A program made the translations under genes and the position numbers. The notes under the pieces are model-generated. The model saw only the letters and a list, made by a program, of their open reading frames with translations. It did no database searches and had not been told where the DNA came from. Of a stretch of DNA of 64,000 nt, positions 1 through 61,932 are shown piece by piece (within the stretch, counting starts at the first letter, position 1; the number at the start of each line of letters is the position of its first letter). The stretch comes from a virus. Taxonomy: Duplodnaviria; Heunggongvirae; Uroviricota; Caudoviricetes. The DNA lies in the IMG/VR virus record IMGVR_UViG_2529292913_000008. The stretch is one strand, 5' to 3'.

Positions 1-210
1 ATGGCTTTCATTCCACCAACCATCGACGACGTTAGACATTGCTCTAACGCTTTATCTGTAGACCCCGCCGAAACCGACGCTGCCCGCGCCATTGCTGAAC
101 ACTACTCAAAGATATCCAATCAGGAGTACCGCATCACCCAAGACGACCTGGATGATCTCACTGACACAATCGAATATCTCATGGCCACTAACCAGCCAGA
201 CTCACAATAA
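1..210 (+). CDS. coi: C1-inactivator (Coi)-like small protein
   Basis: 69-aa ORF directly upstream of c1 on the same strand, matching the P1 immC layout (coi then c1). It starts at the window edge, so the true 5' end is unverified. Confidence 0.5.
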   Translation: MAFIPPTIDDVRHCSNALSVDPAETDAARAIAEHYSKISNQEYRITQDDLDDLTDTIEYLMATNQPDSQ

Positions 211-226
211 ATGCACTAATAAATCT
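210..226 (+). promoter_or_regulatory. C1 operator-like site (14/17 match to ATTGCTCTAATAAATTT)
   Basis: aatgcactaataaatct lies between the coi stop and the c1 start; the match is to the asymmetric P1 C1 operator consensus as I recall it. Confidence 0.4.
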
Positions 227-320
227 ATTATTTTCGTTGGATCCTTCTATAATGGTGGCCAACAACTCCCAGTGTAATCCGCTGTGAGTTGTTGGCCATG
301 TCAATTCTGGAGGAGGATCA

Positions 321-1173
321 ATGATAAATTATGTCTACGGCGAACAACTGTACCAGGAGTTCGTCAGCTTCAGGGATCTCTTTCTAAAAAAAAGCTGTTG
401 CACGCGCCCAACACGTTGATGCCGCCAGCGACGGTCGTCCTGTACGCCCGGTTGTCGTTCTGCCGTTCAAAGAAACTGACAGCATTCAGGCTGAAATTGA
501 TAAATGGACTTTAATGGCGCGGGAACTGGAACAGTACCCAGACCTCAATATCCCAAAGACTATTTTATATCCAGTGCCTAACATCCTTCGCGGTGTGCGT
601 AAGGTTACAACTTATCAGACAGAAGCTGTGAACAGCGTCAACATGACCGCTGGCCGCATTATTCATCTGATTGATAAGGACATTCGCATCCAGAAAAGCG
701 CGGGGATCAATGAGCACAGTGCGAAATACATAGAGAACCTGGAAGCAACAAAAGAGCTAATGAAGCAGTACCCGGAGGATGAAAAATTCCGTATGCGTGT
801 ACACGGCTTTAGCGAAACAATGCTGCGCGTCCATTACATTTCCAGTAGCCCTAACTACAATGATGGTAAATCAGTTAGTTACCATGTGCCGCTGTGTGGT
901 GTGTTTATCTGCGATGAAACTCTCCGTGATGGAATCATCATCAACGGTGAATTCGAGAAAGCAAAATTTAGCCTTTATGACTCTATAGAACCGATCATCT
1001 GCGACCGCTGGCCGCAGGCAAAAATATATCGCCTGGCAGATATTGAAAATGTAAAAAAACAAATTGCCATCACTCGCGAAGAGAAAAAGGTCAAATCAGC
1101 CGCATCAGTTACGCGCAGCCGTAAAACTAAGAAGGGGCAGCCAGTAAACGACAACCCCGAAAGCGCGCAATAG
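321..1173 (+). pseudogene. c1: C1 repressor gene with an apparent +1 frameshift in an A8 run (386-393)
   Basis: ATG at 321 reads MINYVYGEQLYQEFVSFRDLFLKK and then hits a stop. Removing one A from the run at 386-393 joins it to the 219-aa ORF 514..1173, giving 283 aa, the length I recall for P1 C1. Confidence 0.6.
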
Positions 1174-1197
1174 TTTCTATCCGGCATGGTCAATGAG

Positions 1198-2682
1198 TTA
1201 TTCATTAAGCCATGCCAGAGCTTCATCAACCTGCGCTTCGTCTTCGACGCTAAGCACTTCATCCTGGGGAACATAATCCGCCAGCATAGCGAAACAATAT
1301 GTATCCCAATGGTCTGGTGAGTGCAGGTTGAGTTTTTTCTTCATATCCTCCTTACTCATCACCTTCCATTGACCTGCGGAGTTAATCCCTACAGGGATTT
1401 TCGACGCTTCCTCAATAGTTTCATTACCCTTATCCAGTCTCATACGACCTGATTTTACGGCCTCTGCGGCTTGAACGTTGGCATAAGCACGCTTATCAAA
1501 GTACAGGCTCTTATCTTCACGGCTATGCATCTTTTTACCCCAGCGTATACGCTGTACGGTAATACCATAATACTCGTACATCAGATCCGCCGTTGCTTTA
1601 CCCAGGCCATCGCCGTCTATCGCTATGGTGATATTTGGGAATCGCTCAGGATTACATTCTGCGAAAATTTTGGCGGCAAGCTGCGTTTCTGTAACGTCTG
1701 TGTATTCCAGCATTCGATAGTTGATTACACGGCGTTTATTTCGCTGGCCGGACACCATCATGATATTGATAACTGACTTATCCCGTCCCGTACCACCAGC
1801 AACGTCCACACATGCAAGCCAGCCCCATCCTTTGGCAATCTTAACTTTCCGCCGCGTTGCACGTTCAACCTCATCACGTCCAAGAAGGAAGCCGTCCTGT
1901 GATTTAGGGAATAGGCCACGCACCTTAATCATGTACATAGGGTTATCACGCCCGCCGTACTCCGCCAGCTTCATTTTGATAAATTCTGGCGTTACCAGCG
2001 GTGATTCCTCACTGTTAAGCGTGATCGCCGTATAAACGCCATCTGGGTTACCAGGACGCTTGGCCAGTTTATGGTGAGTATCGTAGAAATAGCCGCTTGG
2101 GCGTGTAGGCTGTGACAGTAATAAGATGCGGTTATCCTGTCCGGTAAGAGCACCGGTGATGATACCGAAAGCTCTATCACTGACACCGGAGGCTTCATCG
2201 ATAATATACAGAAGATGATCTGCGTGTTCACCGGCGAGAGCTTCTTCACTTCCCAGACGAAAGCCCTTCGGTACTACAGTCCATACACCTTTACCAGTAA
2301 CCTCATAGAAAGCGGTTTCTGTCAGAACAAAATAATCAGCAAGCCATGGAAAACGGCTGGTGGCAGTAGCCCAGTTTATCTTGATGTACTTGAATATACC
2401 GGTCATTACCTGCTGAATTTTGTTCGCAACGATAATGGCGCGGGCACCGGGATACATGATTATGAACAACATGATCATGATAGAAGTCATGTCTGATTTC
2501 CCGGTACCGTGACCAGACGAAACAGATGTCTTGCTACCCTGTTCCTGCACAGACTCAATAATCAGATCCTGCTGCCAGGTAGGTGTTTTGCCGAACAAAA
2601 CATCAGCGGCAGCAATCCAGTCATAACGATATAGCGCCACCAGCTCGCGCCAACGTGGATCCGTTACGCAACTTCTGGCCAT
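1198..2682 (-). CDS. pacB: Terminase large subunit (PacB-like)
   Basis: 494 aa with Walker A GHGTGKS and a C-terminal nuclease-like region; overlaps the pacA stop by 1 nt (ATGA); the size matches P1 PacB. Confidence 0.85.
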
Positions 2683-3875
2683 TAATCATCATCCCCGTAT
2701 AGCTTGCGGGTAACTTCTTCGTCTTCCTCCTCGTCTTCGTCCAGGTCTTGTTCCAGCCATGGGTCGTTTGATACACCTTCAGTATCAACATCTCCATAAC
2801 CGCCTGTATCAACGATATCGGCGATTTCTTCCCTACGCTGCTCAATCCACAATGCGGCATCGGCGCGGCGGTTGGCGGCCCGTTCTCGCGCAACTTTGTC
2901 CAGATCTTCAAGAGAAGGGCCACCGACGGCTGTTTGCCTTTCCTCATCATCGGTATTGGTCTTAGGAGCACGCAGATCGGCTTTGATTTGCTCCAGCATC
3001 AGGGGCGGCACTTTCCCGCCATGCGCCTCGATGAATTCAGCTGCTTCCAGCACTGACCAGTTATTTTCACGCTTTCGTTCGTATGCCAGCTTAACAATGC
3101 CAGCTTGCCCCATAGATAAAGCGTGCTTTTCCGCCTCCCGGCTTTCTTTTCGATAGTTATTCCGGATGCTGTAAATGGTGTTGATCAGACTGCTTATCTG
3201 CGCGGAACAGCTGTTTAGCATGCTCGCGATACGGTATTCAGGCGGAGTTCCTTCATCATCGTCTTTTTGCTGATCGCGAATTTCCTGCACCAGGCGAATA
3301 CACGTATCCCTGGCGTTCTCCAGCATAAGGAGATGAGAGAGAGACTTTTCCAGAAGAGTGGTTTCCAGAACATCAGCCCCGGACCGACGCAACATAGCGC
3401 GCGCGGCCTTCCGCGCTTCAACGTTATCTATCAGGTAATCGCCAGCTTCGAATTCAAAGCGTTCACCATCATCATCCAGGGTGTCGCGTTCCAGGCGATC
3501 ACGTAAGGTCCGGCGGGCGCGGGTGATCACGTCATGATCATCTGAACGATCATTTATGCGCTTATTTTGGCGCTTCGCATTCTCGACTGCGGCACTGACA
3601 ACGGCATTAACTCTCTGTTTTTCCGCTATTTCAGCCGCAATATGATCACCTGCATGTTGATCATTAGAGTGATCAATGATCATGCTTTTTAGTGGCTTCC
3701 TGACTGGCTTATTTGGCTTGCGGCTGTCCGCAGTCCTGGTGTCTTCTTTGAAGGCACGGAGATAACGACGTGCGGTATTAGGGTTAAGATTAAACTCGGC
3801 GGCATACTGTGCGATGGTGTAACCACCATCTCGCGCCAGGCGAGCAAAATTCTTTTTGTGATCGTCCCAGGTCAC
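2682..3875 (-). CDS. pacA: Terminase small subunit (PacA-like)
   Basis: 397 aa, basic/HTH-like N-terminus and very acidic C-terminus; immediately upstream of pacB; contains the hexamer clusters typical of the P1 pac site. Confidence 0.75.
3520..3685. other. pac: pac site: two clusters of TGATCA hexamers (Dam GATC sites) inside pacA
   Basis: TGATCA at 3524, 3535 (plus cGATCA at 3548) and at 3643, 3658, 3670, 3677. A 3+4 arrangement about 100 bp apart is as described for P1 pac. Confidence 0.6.
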
Positions 3876-3960
3876 TTATGCTTCCTTTCGTAAAAACTCT
3901 TTTTGACGCGAGGGTAACGAAAGTCACATGTCAAAAGGCCCGGAACGGGCAAGCAATCAA

Positions 3961-4413
3961 TCAGATACGTGCGGATGTGGCATTACCGTAATGACGGTGC
4001 TGACGGGCCACCTTATTGAAAAGTTGACGCGCCATTACCCAAGGCTGGTGCTCCCGGCGTTCCTTTTCGTCCTGCGTCATATAGAGTTCGTTCTGGAGTT
4101 TTTCATCAAACCGGCGCGGAGCGCGGCTACGGCGAAAGAATTCAGGATTCAGAGAGTGGATCTGAAATCTACGTGGGCGTGTACTGTCATCAATCAAAAC
4201 AGACGAATACTTAGACACAGCGATAGCCTTTAAGCGCAGATAAACATCGCGCTTATCGACATCCAGATGCGGGTATTCCTTTTCAAGAATTGCTGCGAGT
4301 TCTTTCGCTGATAGAAGAGATTTAGTGCGGATCATGTAATCCGCAATCTCGTACGATGTTATTCGTGAGTGATTTATTTCCATGAAGTGGCGTCCCTGCC
4401 AGTTAAGTAACAT
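3961..4413 (-). CDS. lpa: Late promoter activator (Lpa)-like protein
   Basis: 150-aa ORF directly upstream of pacA in the P1 gene order, with a C1-operator-like site upstream; assignment is by synteny only. Confidence 0.45.
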   Translation of the reverse strand: MLLNWQGRHFMEINHSRITSYEIADYMIRTKSLLSAKELAAILEKEYPHLDVDKRDVYLRLKAIAVSKYSSVLIDDSTRPRRFQIHSLNPEFFRRSRAPRRFDEKLQNELYMTQDEKERREHQPWVMARQLFNKVARQHRHYGNATSARI

Positions 4414-4483
4414 CCTGTCACCTACTGATTAGCCCATGTCAACTAATCAACGTGGAATATAATACCCTCGATTAAATAAATAG

Positions 4484-4500
4484 CAATACATTAGAGCAAT
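4484..4500 (-). promoter_or_regulatory. C1 operator-like site upstream of lpa (13/17)
   Basis: caatacattagagcaat on the plus strand is the reverse complement of the operator consensus; it lies between the lpa start and the upstream gene. Confidence 0.35.
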
Positions 4501-4501
4501 T

Positions 4502-5545
4502 TTATCTAACGCTCGACGAGTGACTTGTGATAGCGCCGACTCCAAGCGCGTAATCAAAGAACAATCGTTGATGCATCGCCAGCCTACCGTGTGTTTTCTC
4601 CCAATTATCGCGGTCACGCTCAATATCACGCTGGCATGACTGGCACAGAGGAATAGCATAAATGTCATGCGCGCATAATCGACTATGACGAACGATATAA
4701 GGCGTAATGTGAGCGCCAGCTCCCGCAGCTCCACAGCCACAGCATGGACGGGAAGCAACAAAGTCCATGTACTCAGGTAATTTTAGCGATTGAAGTTTTG
4801 GTATTTTGAAATGCGCCATACCTGGGTCGGAGTCAACATCCACAGGACATACTTTTGCACGCATCGGCGCGGCGCGTTCTTCCATCATCTGAACATATGC
4901 TATAGCGCGATCGTCATACGGGCGAATATCCGCCTCTTTCAGAGGTCCGCTATCCTGCGGAGTAGCCTTCATCTTATTTATTGATATGCGGCAGACTTCT
5001 TCCGGCATCAGGTGCATCATGTTGCGCATGAAAGCCCACCAGCACAGTTCCTGAATACTTAAATCATGGCCATCTGAAAGCCCCATTTCCTGACGGGCGA
5101 CATCCAGTATCCAGTTAACGCGATTATTATGCAGCGTTTCTTTCAGCTCATTAAAACCACGCATCCGGTAATGGTTATCGTGATGCCAGCACAACAACAC
5201 CGCGCTATTGTCTCGTTCAGCGTGGACAATATGGTTGTCACACCAACTACGATCTGCGGCCTGGCATTGCCCCTCTTTCCTGCGCAACCACGCCACCAGC
5301 GAGTCAATTCCACCAATACGGCGAAACAGTTCATCGCTGTTAAAAAACGGCTGCAACGCCTCATTTGTTGCCATAGTTTGCTCGGAAACAACGAGGCCGT
5401 CGTCCATGTGCTCGATTAACTCACGCGGCACCGGCTCCATAATAAATTTACGGCCAGCCTCCACCAGCTTTCTGACCTCCTGGTCCACTTTGAACGTGGC
5501 GAGGCCAAGCTCTTTCTGTACAAATGGAGTAATTACGGCTTTCAC
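4502..5545 (-). CDS. Hypothetical protein with Cys-rich C-terminal motifs (pdcB-position)
   Basis: 347-aa ORF downstream of doc; contains CCGCG and CxxC-type cysteine clusters; function unknown. Confidence 0.5.
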
Positions 5546-5572
5546 ATCACACCTTTAATCACTGATTGGGCT

Positions 5573-5752
5573 TTATCTGCTGCCCGGCATTCTCTGTTTA
5601 AGCACAACCATTTCCTGACGGCATAACACAGCAATAGCGGTCCTGGCACCAATTTGCTTACCAACCAGGTATTGCTTTACCTCGCGGCGACTCACGCCAT
5701 CAAGAAGCATCTTTAACGCTTCACGGGACAATTTGTTGTATTTACGTGCCAT
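5573..5752 (-). CDS. Small basic protein (pdcA-position)
   Basis: 59-aa ORF starting at the internal ATG (MARKYNK...) with a GGAG RBS, directly after the doc stop; the longer ORF start at 5773 would overlap doc. Confidence 0.4.
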   Translation of the reverse strand: MARKYNKLSREALKMLLDGVSRREVKQYLVGKQIGARTAIAVLCRQEMVVLKQRMPGSR

Positions 5753-5756
5753 TAAT

Positions 5757-6137
5757 CTACTCCGCGGAACCATACAATCTACGTAACGTGTCGGCGACAG
5801 AAGATACAGATATCTCTCCGGTCGCAGCCCCTACGGTAAGGTCTGCCAGTTCAGGTGAATCAAATACCTGCACCCCGTTACGGCGTAGAAATAACAGCGC
5901 ACTGTTTAGCGCGGTACGCTTATTGGCATCATTGAATATATGCCCTCTCGCTGTAGCCACCAGGTAGGTGGCGGAGACTTCGAAAAGGTCGGTGATCTCT
6001 TCGTAGGCAACTCTGGCCTGAACTCTCCCGATAATGGCCTCTGCCCTACCCGGATCTGACATTCCCGGCAAGCCGCCGTAGCGGTTTATATTCGCATCAT
6101 GAAGCGCAATAAGTTCTTCCGGTGATATATGCCTCAT
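5757..6137 (-). CDS. doc: Doc toxin (Fic/Doc family)
   Basis: 126 aa, essentially the P1 Doc sequence as I recall it ([17 protein letters not shown]...[11 protein letters not shown]...); start overlaps the phd stop by 1 nt. Confidence 0.9.
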
Positions 6138-6358
6138 TATCGGTTAACCAGTTCCTTGTTGGTGGAGTCCAGGGTGTCAAACAGGGATGCAAATTCAGCA
6201 TCCAGCGCCGCTTTTTTGTAGGCTTCAAAAGTAGCCTTGCTGACAATTACTGCTGGCTCACGGCCTCTGCGGGTGATTTCAACCTCTTCCCCGGCTTCAA
6301 CATTGTTGAGCACTTCAGAAAGGTTGCCGCGCGCGGTACGGAAGTTAATGGATTGCAT
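6137..6358 (-). CDS. phd: Phd antitoxin
   Basis: 73 aa from the ATG at 6358 ([17 protein letters not shown]...), GAGG RBS upstream; classic phd-doc operon with 1-nt overlap. Confidence 0.85.
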
Positions 6359-6430
6359 AAACACCTCGTGTACTCGTTATGTGTACACAATTATAAACTT
6401 CACAGGCATAAAGCACCAGCACTTTGCAGC

Positions 6431-6820
6431 TTAAATAACCGGACAATCATCAAATTCCCCACTTCGGGCATCATTGATGACATGAGTGATCACACCAAAA
6501 ACAGCATTACTGCCCGTGTAACCATCGTCATCTACTGGTAACGCCTCTTTCTTCCCGGTGCTTAAATCCTCCAGGTGCTGGCGCGGATACTTTCGGTATC
6601 TCTTTATGCGATATTCACCCTCCATAGCGCACACAAGCAGCGAACCATCAACTGGAGTAAGCGAAGAATCAACCACCAGCAAAGCACCCTGCAATATTCC
6701 CTCGCGGTGATGGCTGTCTGCCGCCCGCATGAAGTAGGTCGCTGATGGATGCCTGATTAGTTGCTGATCAAGAGAAATTCTGCTTTCAACATAATCCGCC
6801 GCAGGAGAAGGGAAGCCCAT
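6431..6820 (-). CDS. humD: UmuD'-like S24 peptidase (HumD)
   Basis: 129 aa with an S24/LexA-like C-terminal fold; LexA box 20 bp upstream of the start; position upstream of phd-doc as in P1. Confidence 0.75.
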   Translation of the reverse strand: MGFPSPAADYVESRISLDQQLIRHPSATYFMRAADSHHREGILQGALLVVDSSLTPVDGSLLVCAMEGEYRIKRYRKYPRQHLEDLSTGKKEALPVDDDGYTGSNAVFGVITHVINDARSGEFDDCPVI

Positions 6821-6839
6821 AGCGTTTTCACCTCAATAA

Positions 6840-6859
6840 TACTGTTCATTTATACAGCA
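6840..6859. promoter_or_regulatory. LexA (SOS) box
   Basis: tactgttcatttatacagca fits CTGT-N8-ACAG; located in the divergent promoter region between humD and the lxr-like ORF. Confidence 0.65.
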
Positions 6860-6994
6860 TACATTAAAGAGACACCTTTGGTGCAAACGCGTTATGTACA
6901 TCAACCACCGCAGATGATTTTGTGCGCTTTGCTACTATTCATCACCAACGGATCAGCGTAACCTCGTTGCCAATCAGTTAATAAGGAATTAGCT

Positions 6995-7528
6995 ATGCCT
7001 GCCCGCATTCCTCTCGATCCTGTATTGCCCAAAAATTTTGACTGCACTCCTAACGAGAAACGCTCTAAAGCTCAGTTGGACGCCTGGTGGGACCATCCAT
7101 ATGGGGTTACACAACCTGACGGGAAAATTGTAGTTTATTGTCTGAATGGTGGGGCGTGGGACCGTCCATCCGTGCTTGGTTTGGCAAATAACTATGATGA
7201 AGCCTGTGAACTTGCCGAAAGACAGCAGGCAAGCTGGGTAAAAACACGTTATGAACCGACATTCATGTTTTCAAAAGAACCGCCATTTATACTGGCGAGG
7301 ATGCCGCAGCGACCGGATCATCAACAAGAAATTGTTGCTGAATTTTCCTCTAGGGATGAGATGAATCTCTTCTCATTAAAGCAGGAAGAAAGGGATCGCG
7401 TCGAAGTGTCTCCAACTCTCGACCACAACCGGATGAACCTGGCCCAACTCGCCTGGTACAGCAAAGAATTAGAGATGTCTATTGCCCGACTTGAAAACGA
7501 AAAAGCCGCTATCCAAGCCCAGCACTGA
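6995..7528 (+). pseudogene. LexA-regulated hypothetical gene (lxr-position) truncated by IS10
   Basis: 177-aa ORF whose last codons run into the IS10 end at 7525. Deleting IS10 plus one duplicated copy of the target restores an in-frame continuation of 18 codons (8863-8917), about 195 aa in total. Confidence 0.5.
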
Positions 7529-8853
7529 GAGATCCCCTCATAATTTCCCCAAAGCGTAACCATGTGTGAATAAATTTTGAGCTAGTAGGGTTGCAGCCAC
7601 GAGTAAGTCTTCCCTTGTTATTGTGTAGCCAGAATGCCGCAAAACTTCCATGCCTAAGCGAACTGTTGAGAGTACGTTTCGATTTCTGACTGTGTTAGCC
7701 TGGAAGTGCTTGTCCCAACCTTGTTTCTGAGCATGAACGCCCGCAAGCCAACATGTTAGTTGAAGCATCAGGGCGATTAGCAGCATGATATCAAAACGCT
7801 CTGAGCTGCTCGTTCGGCTATGGCGTAGGCCTAGTCCGTAGGCAGGACTTTTCAAGTCTCGGAAGGTTTCTTCAATCTGCATTCGCTTCGAATAGATATT
7901 AACAAGTTGTTTGGGTGTTCGAATTTCAACAGGTAAGTTAGTTGCTAGAACCCATGGCTCCTTTGCCGACGCTGAGTAGATTTTAGGTGACGGGTGGTGA
8001 CAATGAGTCCGTGTCGAGCGCTGATTTTTTCGGCCTTTAGAGCGAGATTTATACAATAGAATTTGGCATGAGATTGGATTGCTTTTAGTCAGCCTCTTAT
8101 AGCCTAAAGTCTTTGAGTGACTAGATGACATATCATGTAAGTTGCTGATAGGTTTCCAGTTTTCCGCTCCTAGGTCTGCATATTGTACTTTTCCTCTTAC
8201 TCGACTTAACCAGTACCAACCCAGCTTCTCAACGGATTTATACCATGGCACTTTAAAGCCAGCATCACTGACAATGAGCGGTGTGGTGTTACTCGGTAGA
8301 ATGCTCGCAAGGTCGGCTAGAAATTGGTCATGAGCTTTCTTTGAACATTGCTCTGAAAGCGGGAACGCTTTCTCATAAAGAGTAACAGAACGACCGTGTA
8401 GTGCGACTGAAGCTCGCAATACCATAAGTCGTTTTTGCTCACGAATATCAGACCAGTCAACAAGTACAATGGGCATCGTATTGCCCGAACAGATAAAGCT
8501 AGCATGCCAACGGTATACAGCGAGTCGCTCTTTGTGGAGGTGACGATTACCTAACAATCGGTCGATTCGTTTGATGTTATGTTTTGTTCTCGCTTTGGTT
8601 GGCAGGTTACGGCCAAGTTCGGTAAGAGTGAGAGTTTTACAGTCAAGTAATGCGTGGCAAGCCAACGTTAAGCTGTTGAGTCGTTTTAAGTGTAATTCGG
8701 GGCAGAATTGGTAAAGAGAGTCGTGTAAAATATCGAGTTCGCACATCTTGTTGTCTGATTATTGATTTTTCGCGAAACCATTTGATCATATGACAAGATG
8801 TGTATCCACCTTAACTTAATGATTTTTACCAAAATCATTAGGGGATTCATCAG
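7525..8853 (-). mobile_element. IS10 (IS4 family), 1329 bp, with 9-bp target-site duplication AGCCCAGCA
   Basis: Ends CTGAGAGATCCCCTCATAATTTCCCC (7525) and CTGATGAATCCCCTAATGATTTTGG (reverse complement, ending 8853); direct repeats agcccagca at 7516-7524 and 8854-8862. Confidence 0.9.
7538..8746 (-). CDS. IS10 transposase
   Basis: 402 aa, full length, recognised as the IS10/Tn10 transposase sequence. Confidence 0.95.
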   Translation of the reverse strand: MCELDILHDSLYQFCPELHLKRLNSLTLACHALLDCKTLTLTELGRNLPTKARTKHNIKRIDRLLGNRHLHKERLAVYRWHASFICSGNTMPIVLVDWSDIREQKRLMVLRASVALHGRSVTLYEKAFPLSEQCSKKAHDQFLADLASILPSNTTPLIVSDAGFKVPWYKSVEKLGWYWLSRVRGKVQYADLGAENWKPISNLHDMSSSHSKTLGYKRLTKSNPISCQILLYKSRSKGRKNQRSTRTHCHHPSPKIYSASAKEPWVLATNLPVEIRTPKQLVNIYSKRMQIEETFRDLKSPAYGLGLRHSRTSSSERFDIMLLIALMLQLTCWLAGVHAQKQGWDKHFQANTVRNRNVLSTVRLGMEVLRHSGYTITREDLLVAATLLAQNLFTHGYALGKL

Positions 8854-8917
8854 AGCCCAGCATGAAGTAGTTCTGAACCGGATTAGAGAAATGCAAAACG
8901 ATAACAGGGGATTTTGA

Positions 8918-43670: not shown

Positions 43671-43804
43671 GGATTTTACCTTCCTCCCCTACTCCCGAAA
43701 AAATAAAAAAATTGCTTGTCACGAGAAAGTCAACAAGTGACTTTCAATAAAATCTCTTCCGAAAAGGGATTCACACAAGTGCCTTGTGTTTAAGGAAGAG
43801 TAAA

Positions 43805-49170: not shown

Positions 49171-49228
49171 GGAGAGGAAAGGGTGCATTGAGGATACCTG
49201 ACACACGAAGAGTGGCGGGGATCTCTCC

Positions 49229-50567
49229 CATAAGCGCTAACTTAAGGGTTGAACCATCTGAAGAATGCGACGCCTCGGTGCCTCGTTAAGACGATGCCTC
49301 GCGTTCTTCAATTGCGTTTTGTAGGCTGTCAGGGATACTGTCCCACGAATGGCCACCTGTAAGCTCCAGATGACCATTTTTGTTATTCTCCACAACGAGT
49401 TAGTTCTTCTTTTCGGATCCGGCACTTCTGGGGGGGAAATCCAGCGATGGCTGGATTATGTCGTCAATTAAAAATGCGGCGAGTAGATTAGCAAATATCC
49501 ACGCTTTCGCGAGTTCAGGTTCCTTTGCACGCAAAGCATCCAGGTGCAGCAAACTTTTGAGCCGCTTAAAAGCCAGTTCAATTTGCCATCGCAGACGGTA
49601 ACAATCAGCCACTTGCTCTGCTGAATATTCATCTTCCGGTAATGATGTTAGCAATAGCACATGGCCCGCTGCTTCCAGCGTTTCCGCCTGAACTACTCGT
49701 CCTTTTCGACGATTCTCGCTGAGCAGTCGGGTTTTACTGATTAATGCTTTTTCGGGAGGAAGTGATACGGCAATGAGACGTGCCGGAAAGGGAGCTCCGG
49801 CTTTTTTATTACCTGAATTGCCTATCATTACAGTGGTTTCACCGTTCTTACCGCAATCCAGCCCGCGCAGAAAACCCATCATGTCAAAGCGCATTCCTTC
49901 TGCAGTTAACCAGCGCAATCCTCGCCAGTGAACCCGGACGATATAATCAGCTTCTCCAAAAGCAAGTGAGCGGATACATTCGGGACGCGAACCGAATCCC
50001 CGGTCAGCAATGCGTATCTCGTCTGCCGTTTGCGCAAATCGGTCCAGCCGTTCAGCGTCTCTGCTGTCGGTTAGCTCAAAATCAGTGAACTGACAGGTAT
50101 GAGGATCATATCCCATATGTAGTCGCCATTCAGCGCTGCCGCCCCCGGGCGCACTGATTGCTGTTCCATCGACAAGACGCAATCTCTTTCCGCTTGTACA
50201 ACCCGTAACTGCGGCGCGTACAGCAAGTGTTTGTGCGGCAAGTATGCCAAACCAGTCGGCGGCATTCCGCAGCCGCTTCAGGAGAGCCACGTCAGATAAT
50301 GTTGCAACGTCATGGAGCTGAGCCCATGCAGTGACTTCACGTAATGACATCCCCCCGGGGCCGTAAGCCAGCCCCAGACGTAGCAGAGTTGCAGCATCAC
50401 GAATTTCGCGGCGGCGGGTTAGAGCCCCGGCATTACGTGCCGAAGTATCCAGTTCTTCGGGCTTACCAATATGGGCCAGAATTGCTGACCAGTTATCGTG
50501 AGAGTAATTCATCGGCACGTTAAATCATATCAGGCGTAATACCACAACCCTTAAGTTAGCGCTTATG
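49229..50567 (-). mobile_element. IS186 (IS4 family), 1339 bp, with 10-bp target-site duplication GGATCTCTCC
   Basis: Terminal inverted repeats CATAAGCGCTAACTTAAGGGTTG at 49229 and its reverse complement ending at 50567; identical flanks at 49219-49228 and 50568-50577. Confidence 0.85.
49400..50518 (-). CDS. IS186 transposase
   Basis: 372 aa, recognised as the IS186 transposase (MPMNYSHDNWSAILAH...). Confidence 0.9.
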   Translation of the reverse strand: MPMNYSHDNWSAILAHIGKPEELDTSARNAGALTRRREIRDAATLLRLGLAYGPGGMSLREVTAWAQLHDVATLSDVALLKRLRNAADWFGILAAQTLAVRAAVTGCTSGKRLRLVDGTAISAPGGGSAEWRLHMGYDPHTCQFTDFELTDSRDAERLDRFAQTADEIRIADRGFGSRPECIRSLAFGEADYIVRVHWRGLRWLTAEGMRFDMMGFLRGLDCGKNGETTVMIGNSGNKKAGAPFPARLIAVSLPPEKALISKTRLLSENRRKGRVVQAETLEAAGHVLLLTSLPEDEYSAEQVADCYRLRWQIELAFKRLKSLLHLDALRAKEPELAKAWIFANLLAAFLIDDIIQPSLDFPPRSAGSEKKN

Positions 50568-50589
50568 GGATCTCTCCCCGCCAGGTCTC

Positions 50590-51222: not shown

Positions 51223-52067
51223 TCACCCTCTGAATCCTGCCGGTATACCCCATTGTTCGTTATCTTTATTTTTGGCTAAAACCGCATTAAGAGCTTCGTT
51301 TACCGTCATGCAATGCGGCAGATTATCGAAGTTTGATATCCCGCCAATATCAGGAGAACGCTTGTCCTTCAGGTAAGCATATTTCCGCGCTGCCGCCTCT
51401 ACTTTCTGCTTGAACTCATGTTTTTGAGCGCGTTTTTTGGATAACCGCAGATTGTCAGCCTTTGCTTTTGCCTCAGCGATCCATGAAGTCAATTTTTTGA
51501 GTCTGGTCGTTCCGGCACCGCCGGAAACTGATCTTTTTGTTTTTTAACTTGTGACTTCTTATTCTTTATTGCCACGTCATCCTGACAGGGGGAGGGGGTA
51601 TCATTTTGACATGGGGGTGTGGATAAAAAATTAAATAAAGCCAATGTCTTAGCGAGAACAGCTTTAACCTTGGTTGCCGCTGAAGAGATCTTTAATTTGC
51701 TTTCAATCAGCGCATTTTTGGCTTGTTGTGCGAAGGCCAAAAAGGATGGTGTAAACCGGTACAGGTTAGCGCGACGTTCACGGTGATCGCCGATAACAAT
51801 CTCTACAGACAGGATTCCTTTGTTTACAGCTTCACGGAATGCACGAACGACGGTTGATTGGCTATAACCAGTTTCTGCCGCGATCAGGCGGTGAGGCTTG
51901 TGAATGAAGTATTCACTGGTTGTTGCCGCGAGATTTGCACATTGCGACAAGATATGCCCGGCGCTACGGGATAGACCGGAGTGTGTTACAAAGCAGGCCA
52001 ATTCATAGCCAGAAAAAGTAAAATCGCTCATCGTTATACAGCTCAGGAAAGTGACTTTAGCCAGCAT
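51223..52067 (-). pseudogene. repL: Lytic replication protein RepL gene split by a -1 frameshift at a T6/A6 run (51493-51498)
   Basis: The 192-aa and 89-aa ORFs abut; adding one A to the run fuses them into 281 codons, the length I recall for P1 RepL; kilA lies immediately upstream. Confidence 0.55.
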
Positions 52068-58243: not shown

Positions 58244-58903
58244 ATGGAAAGAAAAAACGCCAATATTGACGATGTTATAAGGACAGTTGAAACCGCCAGC
58301 GCGAAAGAGCTGGAAGAGCTTGCAGGTATTCGGGAAGCTGTTGAAGATTTGAAAGGGGAACGAGTTGCAACTGTTGATCCTGTCTCTCGCAGTGTGTCGG
58401 CATTAAATCGCACAATCGAAAATTCACGTCCTGACTTTGTGACCAATGCGCCATCAGTGGACCCTATTGTTGACGCAATAAAACGGCTTAATTTAGGGGA
58501 CGTTTCTCGTATACGGGAGGACAAAGTCACTAACCGTGCACAGCAGGCTGCACCAACAGCGCACAATCCCCCAAATAGACGAAGAGAGGCAATAACAGAG
58601 GATGTTAAAGCACAGCGGTTAGAAACGGTCAAACTCGCTCGTGATTTGAAAGGGGAACGCGTTGCAACGGTTGACCCAGTATCTCGCAGTGTGTCGGCAT
58701 TAAATCGAACAATCGAAAATTCCCGGCCAGACTTTGTGGCCAATGCGCCATCAGTAGACCCTATTGTTGACGCAATGAAACGGCTTAATTTAGGGGACGT
58801 TTCTCGTGTAGTTCAGGAGGGCATTGCTCAACAGGAACAGCAGGCCAAATCAACTACACCAAAGGGTAAAAACGACGCAGGAAGGCTATACCAGAGGATA
58901 TAA
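58244..58903 (+). CDS. Hypothetical protein with an internal ~54-aa tandem duplication
   Basis: 219 aa; GERVATVDPVSRSVSALNRTIENSRPDFV.NAPSVDPIVDA.KRLNLGDVSR occurs twice. Confidence 0.55.
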   Translation: MERKNANIDDVIRTVETASAKELEELAGIREAVEDLKGERVATVDPVSRSVSALNRTIENSRPDFVTNAPSVDPIVDAIKRLNLGDVSRIREDKVTNRAQQAAPTAHNPPNRRREAITEDVKAQRLETVKLARDLKGERVATVDPVSRSVSALNRTIENSRPDFVANAPSVDPIVDAMKRLNLGDVSRVVQEGIAQQEQQAKSTTPKGKNDAGRLYQRI

Positions 58904-58941: not shown

Positions 58942-61932
58942 ATGTTCGATCAAAAAGGCGGTGCGCAAAAAAGCCAAAACCAACGCGATGCGCGTGGTCG
59001 TTTTATTGGAAAGTCAGGGAGTAAGGCCGCAGCGGAAGATGCCCGTGCTGAACGTGCTGAAAAGGCCAGGCGCAAAGAGGATGATGAGCGTCTAAATGCT
59101 GAATCAGGTTTATTAAAAAAACTGTCAAAAGTAGCTGAAGGCATAGGTAACCCTTCAGAGACTCGTGCCGTTGATGCGTTAGGTTATGCCGTTGCTGGTC
59201 CATTGTGGGCAGCAGGGAAGGAGCTTGGCGGGATATCAAAAGAAGTTGGTGGATCGCTTAATGGTGCCAGAAAGTCTATTGCCGATGTGATTCGTGGCAA
59301 TGACGATAACAGCCGTAGAAAAGGTTTTTTTAGGCGTAAATCGCAAAATAGTGCCGATGTCGTTCAGGTTAACACCCAAAAACGGACAGTTCAGGAACTT
59401 CAGGAGCAGACCAGCGAAATTAAAGAGGGCAATGACAAGATTCTCAGCGCCCTTGATCAGATAGCCAAAAACACCGGGAAAAAGAAGGGCGGCTTGCTGT
59501 CCAAACTATTTAGCCTGTTAGGGAAGGGGGCCGGTGGCGTCGCGTCGTTGTTAATGGGGCGTGGCATGCTGAAAAAAGCTGGAGCACTCGCTTTTGGCGC
59601 TCTGGGGGCAAAGAAACTTGTAGGAATGCTACGCGGTGGTGGCAAGAAGACTATCGCCCATGAAGGTGGAGATTTGGCTGCCCGGGCAGCAGGTAAACTT
59701 GGATTAAAGGCAGTTGGTAAAGGGGCGTTACGCGCAATTCCCTTAGTCGGCACAGTGGCTGGAGGTATTTATGATGCGGTAACCGGTTGGAATGATACAG
59801 AAGCGCAACGTCGAGCGTTTGGGCTTAAATCAGGACAAGATCCATCATTCCAGCAAAAAGCCGCTTATACGTTAGCCAATGTTCTTGATATGGGGGGACT
59901 GGTATCTGGTATTAGCAGCGCCATTGGTGAGGTTCTCAAATCACTTGGATTTGAGGATATCGGCAATATGTTGCAATCATTTTCGACGGAAAGTATTGCC
60001 CAGGCCATTGATAGTGGGATTACCAACTTAGAAACATATATTTCTAACCTTGGCGACACCATTTCTACCAAGTTCGAAGATTACACAGCAAAGATTGGTG
60101 ATGCTGTTTCAGCATGGTTTAGCGATACATCTAATAAGCTGCTTGAAAAGCTGGATGCCATCAAAGACTTCTTTACTGTTGATAACCTGAAACAGGTTTT
60201 CAGTGATGCAATTGATAGTGCAATTGATTTCATTAAGAACCCAGGGAAACACATTAAAGAGGCGGCTGGTAATATTTGGGATGGGGTTAAAAATTTACCT
60301 GGTAAAGCATTAGATGCAGCGGTTGATGCCGTTAAAAATACCCCTGCGGCAATGATTGTATCAAAAATACCCAATCCGATCGGCGAGGCTAATGCGAAAG
60401 AAATCGCTCCAGAGTTAAAAGCTCCGGTTAATAGCCACCAGGAGACATCTGATTCTAAAACTGAATCCGATGCCAAACAGACTAATATTGTTACCCGCGT
60501 GATAAATGCGGCACTGGACACGGCGAAAGATAGCAATAAAACAGTTAAAGAAACTGCGAATCAGATTATCAATGCAAATGCCGCAGAAACGGGCAATAGC
60601 GCGTTGCAGAAAATTGATAAAGCTATTGGTCAAAATAGCTCGTCATCATCGTCGCTTAATACCACTGGCACCAGGAATGACATTCAGAAAGCTGCGGATA
60701 CCTACAACAATGGCCGCTTGGATGTAAAAGTCGGAAGTCTTGGATCTGAAGGTAAGGCAAATCTCGATAAGTTGGCTCCGTATTTTGCTGAACTAGAGAA
60801 TAAATATGGTCTTCCAGAAGGCACTCTTTACGCGATTGCTGCAACTGAATCTGGTGGTAATCCGTATGCAAAATCCCAAACCGGTGCTCTGGGAATGTTT
60901 CAGTTCACGGGGATTGCTCGTGAAGAGACTGGCTTAGCTGAAGGTGAATCGTTTGATCCTGTGAAATCGGCAGAAGCTGCGGCTCTTCTCATGAGCAAGT
61001 ATCTGAAGCAAGCCAATGGAGACTTAAACGAGGCCATCACTGCATATAACGCTGGGTTTGGCACTATCAATAAGTGGAAAAAAGGCACAGGTGACTTATC
61101 GAAAGAAAACCGTGAGTACGCGATCAAGGTCAATACTCATCGTGCTCGCTATTTAGGTGGTGAAATCTATACACCTGGAGCAGGAGCACAGGGTGGGGCG
61201 CAATATGGAGTGAGGGGACCACTGCCTGATAACGCTGTTATCGATCAGTCTACTGGCCTGGCGTTTACCCCTGGTGATAGCCCGTTTGAGAAAGGCGGTC
61301 TGGTAGACAAAATCGGCAATGCTGTTGGCGTTAACGATCTGGTCAACAAATTCATGAATGGCCGGGGTATGCGTCGGGAAGTCGTTCAGGGAACGCTCGA
61401 AGAACGTGCACGAGGGAAGGGGACCGCAACAGCAGCTGGCAATGTGTATGTTGATACTCCGATGCCAGTTGAAGAGGCGCGTCCGGTGACCAGCAACTCA
61501 AGTTACTTTGACCAACTCGGCGCACAAATGGGGATTGATGGACTATTCGATAAACTCCGCAACTCGCCGGGGATGCGGAAAAATAATGCGCCTGAACCAG
61601 CCTCCACGTCCCAGGTGACGACTGCCGCCAACGATTTGCAGCAACCAACCGGTCGTATGCAGATAGACGGACAGGTTATTAGTGACCTTGGTGGTTCCGG
61701 TGCCAAGCCGACAATGCAGTTGGCTGATAATACCGTTTCACTTGATGGTGAAACGAAGCGGCTGTTTGCGCAGATGACCTCATTACTTGCCAGGATTGAA
61801 GAGCACACCAAAGACTCGGCGAAAGGCCAGGGAACTGTCGTAAAGGTCAGCACGCCTCAGCCGGGCGTTATGCGCACGGTACCACTGTCAATTGATGATC
61901 CGTTGATGAATGACTACGCGAGAGTTGATTGA
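58942..61932 (+). CDS. Sit-like structural protein with a lytic transglycosylase (SLT) domain
   Basis: 996 aa; SLT motif region GTLYAIAATESGGNPYAKSQTGALGMFQFT; Gly/Lys-rich N-terminal half. Confidence 0.7.
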   Translation: MFDQKGGAQKSQNQRDARGRFIGKSGSKAAAEDARAERAEKARRKEDDERLNAESGLLKKLSKVAEGIGNPSETRAVDALGYAVAGPLWAAGKELGGISKEVGGSLNGARKSIADVIRGNDDNSRRKGFFRRKSQNSADVVQVNTQKRTVQELQEQTSEIKEGNDKILSALDQIAKNTGKKKGGLLSKLFSLLGKGAGGVASLLMGRGMLKKAGALAFGALGAKKLVGMLRGGGKKTIAHEGGDLAARAAGKLGLKAVGKGALRAIPLVGTVAGGIYDAVTGWNDTEAQRRAFGLKSGQDPSFQQKAAYTLANVLDMGGLVSGISSAIGEVLKSLGFEDIGNMLQSFSTESIAQAIDSGITNLETYISNLGDTISTKFEDYTAKIGDAVSAWFSDTSNKLLEKLDAIKDFFTVDNLKQVFSDAIDSAIDFIKNPGKHIKEAAGNIWDGVKNLPGKALDAAVDAVKNTPAAMIVSKIPNPIGEANAKEIAPELKAPVNSHQETSDSKTESDAKQTNIVTRVINAALDTAKDSNKTVKETANQIINANAAETGNSALQKIDKAIGQNSSSSSSLNTTGTRNDIQKAADTYNNGRLDVKVGSLGSEGKANLDKLAPYFAELENKYGLPEGTLYAIAATESGGNPYAKSQTGALGMFQFTGIAREETGLAEGESFDPVKSAEAAALLMSKYLKQANGDLNEAITAYNAGFGTINKWKKGTGDLSKENREYAIKVNTHRARYLGGEIYTPGAGAQGGAQYGVRGPLPDNAVIDQSTGLAFTPGDSPFEKGGLVDKIGNAVGVNDLVNKFMNGRGMRREVVQGTLEERARGKGTATAAGNVYVDTPMPVEEARPVTSNSSYFDQLGAQMGIDGLFDKLRNSPGMRKNNAPEPASTSQVTTAANDLQQPTGRMQIDGQVISDLGGSGAKPTMQLADNTVSLDGETKRLFAQMTSLLARIEEHTKDSAKGQGTVVKVSTPQPGVMRTVPLSIDDPLMNDYARVD

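Follow-up and report, generated by a model that had tools for sequence, protein, structure and literature searches.

The frameshift recorded in the c1 repressor gene of the analyzed P1-like plasmid prophage is very probably a homopolymer-length miscall in the consensus of a single draft assembly, GCA_000249735.2. The window, i.e. the whole analyzed stretch of 64,000 nucleotides, has a run of eight adenines (A8) within c1 at positions 386-393, while P1 and every close relative examined have seven (A7). The eighth A would have arisen through base-calling or consensus error, with no corresponding mutation in the culture that was sequenced. In the cell, the plasmid most likely carries A7 and specifies a normal 283-aa C1, which would repress the lytic operators of the P1-like plasmid prophage and keep it as a stable plasmid.

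The run, AAAAAAAA, is located on the plus strand between the flanking motifs tctttct and gctgttg. From the c1 start codon (ATG at position 321), the recorded frame comprises 32 codons (MINYVYGEQLYQEFVSFRDLFLKKSCCTRPTR) and ends at a TGA stop codon (417-419); the product expected from positions 321-419 of the plus strand is therefore a 32-aa peptide. The break falls after codon 24. The remainder of C1 sits one frame over, where the first in-frame start opens an ORF of 219 aa (514-1173, plus strand) corresponding to C1 residues 65-283. This is the form in which gene callers report the broken gene, and it was also called on the source contig. An uninterrupted c1 frame is absent from the record, since A8 at 386-393 shifts it. 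Deletion of one A yields a 283-aa product that matches the NCBIfam profile NF041318 (phage_rep_C1, “phage repressor protein C1”) along positions 1-283 of 283 with a score of 610.9 bits, the equivalog cutoff of this family being 500 bits. After the repair, the DNA matches c1 of NZ_CP122822.1 and NZ_MN510446.1 base for base; the product of these two genes is annotated as WP_000611656.1. A Pfam search of C1 gave no match, and precomputed hits list PF27008 for this protein; its identity is settled by the NF041318 match. The sequence-only reading had recognized c1, the break of its frame by an extra A in the A8 run and the one-base repair to 283 aa, and the profile match and the predicted ORFs confirmed each of these points. 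The possibility that a functional, N-terminally truncated C1 is translated from the ATG at 514 was rejected, as this codon is not preceded by a recognizable Shine-Dalgarno-like sequence and lies 95 nt past the upstream stop.

The genetic context of the broken gene (321-1173, plus strand) is that of the immC region. Upstream there is an intact coi gene (1-210, plus strand) encoding a 69-aa C1 inactivator, annotated as coi or C1 repressor inactivator in matching phage records, and downstream a convergently transcribed pacB (1198-2682, minus strand). The same layout is found in P1, P7 and SJ46, and because the coi-c1-pacB context is as in P1, the broken c1 does not represent a chance pattern of ORFs. 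When compared with P1 c1 (283 aa, NF041318), the analyzed locus is thus the same gene in the same context, with a repaired product that matches the family over its full length. It differs in the run, which is A7 in P1 and its relatives and A8 in the window record, where the gene encodes only 32 aa as written.

The window corresponds to bases 380-64379 of contig AIGC01000010.1 (91,644 bp) of draft assembly GCA_000249735.2, and the A8 run to bases 765-772 of this contig. This source was identified by exact-sequence lookup of the proteins encoded within the window. Two of the contig records compared (L144 and L138) both represent AIGC01000010.1 itself and show 100% identity to the window over 17,528 and 20,579 bases, respectively, with a constant offset of 379. 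An insertion of the IS10/ISVsa5 type (about 7529-8857; transposase ORF 7538-8746, minus strand) truncates an lxr homologue to 177 aa (6995-7528). Only four contigs on record, from AIGC01, SRR12827270, SRR124118 and SRR18275432, encode the resulting lxr::IS10 junction protein, and the junction was used as a lineage marker.

The Logan contig SRR12827270_244 (L145) carries the lxr::IS10-truncated ORF and matches positions 1-7549 of the window without a mismatch. The sole difference over this segment is A7 in place of A8, and c1 is called in this contig at 283 aa. The C at position 6858 is shared by the window and L145, and is absent from CP122822 and MN510446. Independent sequencing of the same replicon therefore gives the canonical A7, and because this independent run has an intact gene, the A8 of the window is almost certainly a miscall. 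L145 may derive from another isolate, which leaves room for a very recent A8 mutation in the sequenced stock. A second Logan contig, from SRR12827410 (L148), has zero mismatches to the window over 21.3 kb, and its c1 is likewise called at 283 aa; its only differences from the window are T6 in place of T5 at 18209 and the lack of the IS10. T6 at 18209 is also found in SRR1118453 (L152). The window is separated from its closest relatives L145, L148 and L152 by 0, 0 and 1 substitutions, respectively; between it and the nearest independently sequenced relatives essentially only homopolymer lengths differ. The Logan sequence SRR124118, which has the IS10 junction, shows a discrepancy of its own, A5 versus A6 in pdcB.

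One of the two near-identical plasmids, NZ_MN510446.1 (pSvP1_F), is a 139-kb P1/IncF hybrid with the enterotoxin genes eltAB, stb and astA, two icd-ant regions and many IS91 copies. The plasmid represented by the window belongs, like pSvP1_F, to a porcine ETEC-associated group of P1-like plasmids. The literature search found no c1 frameshift in P1-like plasmids, and nothing on pSvP1_F either.

A 1,300-base query covering the c1 region gave P1-like matches in 21 phage, 704 plasmid and 722 E. coli genome records. The best of these were NZ_CP122822.1 and NZ_MN510446.1 (99.9% identity, one base of length apart), and identity to P1 was 98.0%. With a 121-base query centred on the run, no exact A8 match was found among 701 E. 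coli genome records or among 702 plasmid records; the best matches reached 120/121 over a span of 120 bases, and therefore have A7. In IMG/VR, a 30-mer containing A8 occurs once, versus at least 120 occurrences of the A7 29-mer, and neither the species genomes of GTDB nor the JGI metagenomes contain the A8 30-mer. Only one other IMG/VR contig (L001) has A8 at this site, and this contig includes Ns as well as about nine indels in homopolymers over 9.3 kb.

A public protein-position index lists the 219-aa C1 product in 86 blocks, compared with 15,273 blocks for a neighbouring P1 protein. The c1 run was read in ten contigs in which this product had been called: it was A6 in six of them and A8 in two, and the remaining two had A7 together with a lesion elsewhere. 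Further indels (1 to 8, mostly homopolymer, within 6.6 kb) were present in seven of the eight contigs with A6 or A8, several of which also have split cre, pacA or pacB genes. Among these ten places A6 is commoner than A8, and c1 “pseudogenes” at this run recur in public assemblies.

Homopolymer-length errors in the consensus of draft and long-read assemblies are the usual source of “frameshifted” pseudogenes in annotation. The c1 lesion resembles them in being a one-base change in a run of at least six, found in one assembly only and absent from independent sequence; in having other such changes alongside, with almost no substitutions; and in affecting a run that is miscalled in other error-rich assemblies. 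It differs in the modest density of the changes, five in 64 kb. This count was obtained by aligning the window to CP122822, MN510446 and P1 and scoring differences at sites where the relatives agree. Five one-base run-length changes were distinguished, versus three substitutions, at least one of which (6858) is a lineage SNP common to L145. All five affect runs with a length of 6 or 7 in the relatives (101 runs of at least 6 are present in the window), and the c1 change is the only insertion among them. Of the four others, three are located inside genes (pmgS, repL and sit). Co-occurring homopolymer indels and a deficit of substitutions, as expected of an assembly artefact, were thus both observed, with two of the five changes (repL and sit) recurring in other samples. 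These two are not unique to the assembly, and some of the companion differences may be real.

The change in pmgS (T5 at 18209-18213) is found only in this assembly: CP122822, MN510446, P1, L148 and L152 all have T6, and in this region the window shows no substitutions relative to L148 and one relative to L152. The intergenic change, A6 in place of A7 at 43698-43703, lies between parB and gene 23, beside parS. Among nine sequences compared over the A7-T-A7 tract (43698-43711), the only deviants are the window (A6-T-A7) and AIGF01 (A6-T-A6), which comes from the same accession series as the AIGC01 of the window. In repL (51223-52067, minus strand), T6 at 51540-51545, where the relatives have T7, splits the gene into parts of 192 and 89 aa. 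This T6 allele is on record in nine contigs, and the six of them listed represent six assemblies: AIGC01, AIFB01 and AIGF01, which form one accession series, DADGTQ01, JAEEGD01 and JAJANK01. The AIxx01 accessions presumably stem from a 2012 draft-genome project on diarrhoeagenic E. coli, and DADGTQ01 and JAJANK01 have a different backbone in common. Either the repL T6 is miscalled repeatedly, or P1-like plasmids have repeatedly suffered a genuine loss of the lytic replication initiator.

In sit, A5 at 58868-58872 (A6 in the relatives) splits the gene into ORFs of 219 aa (58244-58903) and 996 aa (58942-61932). The ORF is continuous in CP122822, comprising 1237 codons from stop to stop and 1229 aa from the first Met. 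Logan SRR063724 has the A5 allele as well; this is a different sample, whose sequence shows one SNP and one 12-bp indel relative to the window. The recurring repL, sit and parS-side differences could be systematic platform errors or real alleles; they bear nothing on c1, where the same-lineage sequence has A7. The N-terminal part of sit contains two 165-bp repeats (58346-58510 and 58643-58807) that are 92.7% identical, and the length of Sit among P1-like plasmids ranges from 1110 to 1273 aa. Despite the continuous ORF, PGAP annotates only the 996-aa C-terminal part of sit on CP122822.

A further run-length difference, common to independently sequenced relatives, provided a contrast to the c1 lesion. 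A8 at 18700-18707 breaks pmgS (minus strand) into ORFs of 47 and 381 aa. The run is A8 in the window, in CP122822 (where the gene is annotated as “frameshifted”), in SRR12827410 (L148) and in SRR1118453 (L152), and A7 in MN510446, P1 and two further contigs (L150 and L151). Since A8 is kept in L148 and L152, this frameshift is real and inherited: within this sub-lineage of plasmids, a gene with a putative role in head morphogenesis has become a pseudogene. The pmgS A8 serves as an internal control; the approach separates shared, real run-length changes from those found in a single assembly.

Two other features distinguish the window from its relatives. The hsdS gene (ORF 12229-13497) contains a 12-bp unit, CTTACCGCTGAG, present 3.3 times at 12787-12826, with one copy fewer in CP122822 and MN510446; HsdS is accordingly 422 aa long in the window versus 418 aa. 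The repeat difference is a real polymorphism, because the 422-aa allele is on record in ten contigs. We take the repeat to resemble the TAEL-repeat switch of recognized spacer length that distinguishes EcoR124I from EcoR124II. At 49213-50583 there is an IS421/IS186-like element with a 370-aa transposase gene, which has a G7 run and is intact in the window. CP122822 and MN510446 carry the element at the same site in the opposite orientation, with terminal overlaps of about 39 bp, which could reflect inversion in place, independent insertion into a hot spot, or a choice made during assembly. In CP122822 the run is G6, and the annotation marks that copy as frameshifted.

Clear-plaque c1 mutants of phage P1 are not known to maintain lysogeny. 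A frameshift after codon 24 would likewise be a null allele of the same gene; the window differs from such mutants in that it comes from a 91.6-kb contig of a bacterial assembly with repA, parA, parB and phd/doc. C1 binds 22 operators and represses, among others, repL and lpa, the latter encoding the activator of the genes for late morphogenesis and lysis (PMC8546580). The coi, kilA, ant and lpa genes of the window are all intact. Because C1 represses repL and lpa, and coi, kilA and lpa are intact, a true c1 null would be expected to derepress lethal functions and should not persist as the majority plasmid sequence. A real and very recent c1 frameshift, survived because the prophage was already defective in pmgS, and perhaps in repL and sit, or because C1 was supplied in trans by another P1-like element, is on these grounds improbable: from P1 biology derepression should be lethal (PMC8546580), the same-lineage L145 has A7 and nothing else different over 7.5 kb, and c1 has no further mutations, although an inactive gene would be expected to gather some. 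The five indels among eight changes also fit poorly with ordinary mutation (binomial P = 0.0004 if indels make up about 10% of mutations, or 0.027 if 25%). Both proportions are reportedly those of E. coli mutation-accumulation data. Homopolymer frameshifts do get fixed in this lineage, as illustrated by the pmgS A8 at 18700-18707 in four independent sequences; other samples also have the sit A5 and repL T6 alleles; and relatives carry IS elements in phage genes (the tail fibre gene and hsdR in CP122822, sit in MN510446). Should the defects in repL, sit and pmgS be real, the plasmid would be a decaying prophage that could conceivably have acquired other lesions too. It is nevertheless quite improbable that A8 is real and that a P1-like prophage devoid of its master repressor persists because the repL, sit and pmgS frameshifts have disarmed the lytic programme. 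A mismatch-repair-deficient mutator host as the source of real homopolymer indels was also considered and is improbable, as it is a poor fit to the indel/substitution ratio and leaves A7 in L145 unexplained. A mixed A7/A8 culture, generated by replication slippage or by amplification of induced c1-mutant genomes, from which the consensus took A8, would agree with the occurrence of A6, A7 or A8 at this run across many assemblies. Most of these length variants co-occur with other homopolymer errors, however, and a c1-null subpopulation would lyse and hardly reach a majority, which makes such a mixture very unlikely. The sequence-only reading had left the choice between a sequencing error and a biologically important lesion. 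The former is borne out by A7 and the 283-aa c1 in L145 and by the other run-length differences, while the proposed clear-plaque mutant or additional layer of immunity gained no positive support.

The recorded A8 might also be genuine and harmless, if full-length C1 were produced from it by transcriptional slippage in which one A is dropped, or by ribosomal slippage (+1/-2) of tRNA-Lys on A AAA AAA A. Such a run is slippery in principle, and a +1 slip would yield exactly the wild-type protein (L K K A V A). The c1 run shares with known slippage systems, i.e. Thermus dnaX (A9), Shigella mxiE and IS elements (PMC1088944), an A run at the point where two frames join; it differs from them in being only 8 long, in requiring a deletion, in the lack of conservation of the allele and in the lack of such rescue by E. 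coli RNA polymerase on poly(A). In reporters transcribed by E. coli RNA polymerase and needing a one-base deletion on poly(A), no rescue was observed, and on poly(A) runs shorter than eight no activity of any kind was detected (PMC6260861). Slippery runs usually show evidence of being selected against once they reach about nine bases (PMC1088944). The A8 allele is not conserved, as about 1,400 related records contain no exact match to it. Hence neither a conserved arrangement nor, judging from the literature, a run length and direction suited to the host RNA polymerase was found. Slippage rescue of c1 was rejected on account of this lack of conservation and of the E. coli RNA polymerase data (PMC6260861). 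Recoding at this site is thus extremely unlikely, and even leaky expression of C1 from A8 appears unlikely.

If the c1 frameshift were true, the element would be an unusual plasmid prophage surviving without its primary repressor, and the window would offer a snapshot of a phage-plasmid decaying to a plain plasmid through slippage at A/T runs. Given that the A8 is in all likelihood a miscall, the c1 frameshift is no ground for classing the element as repressor-less or defective, and the artefact matters only for curation. Neither c1 nor, probably, sit and repL should be counted as pseudogenes, and the same probably holds for part of the damage to pmgS. Public assemblies frequently miscall the A7 run at c1 codons 22-24. 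When P1-like phage-plasmids are surveyed for “degraded” members, frameshifts of c1 at this run should therefore be treated as suspect and not as loss of immunity.
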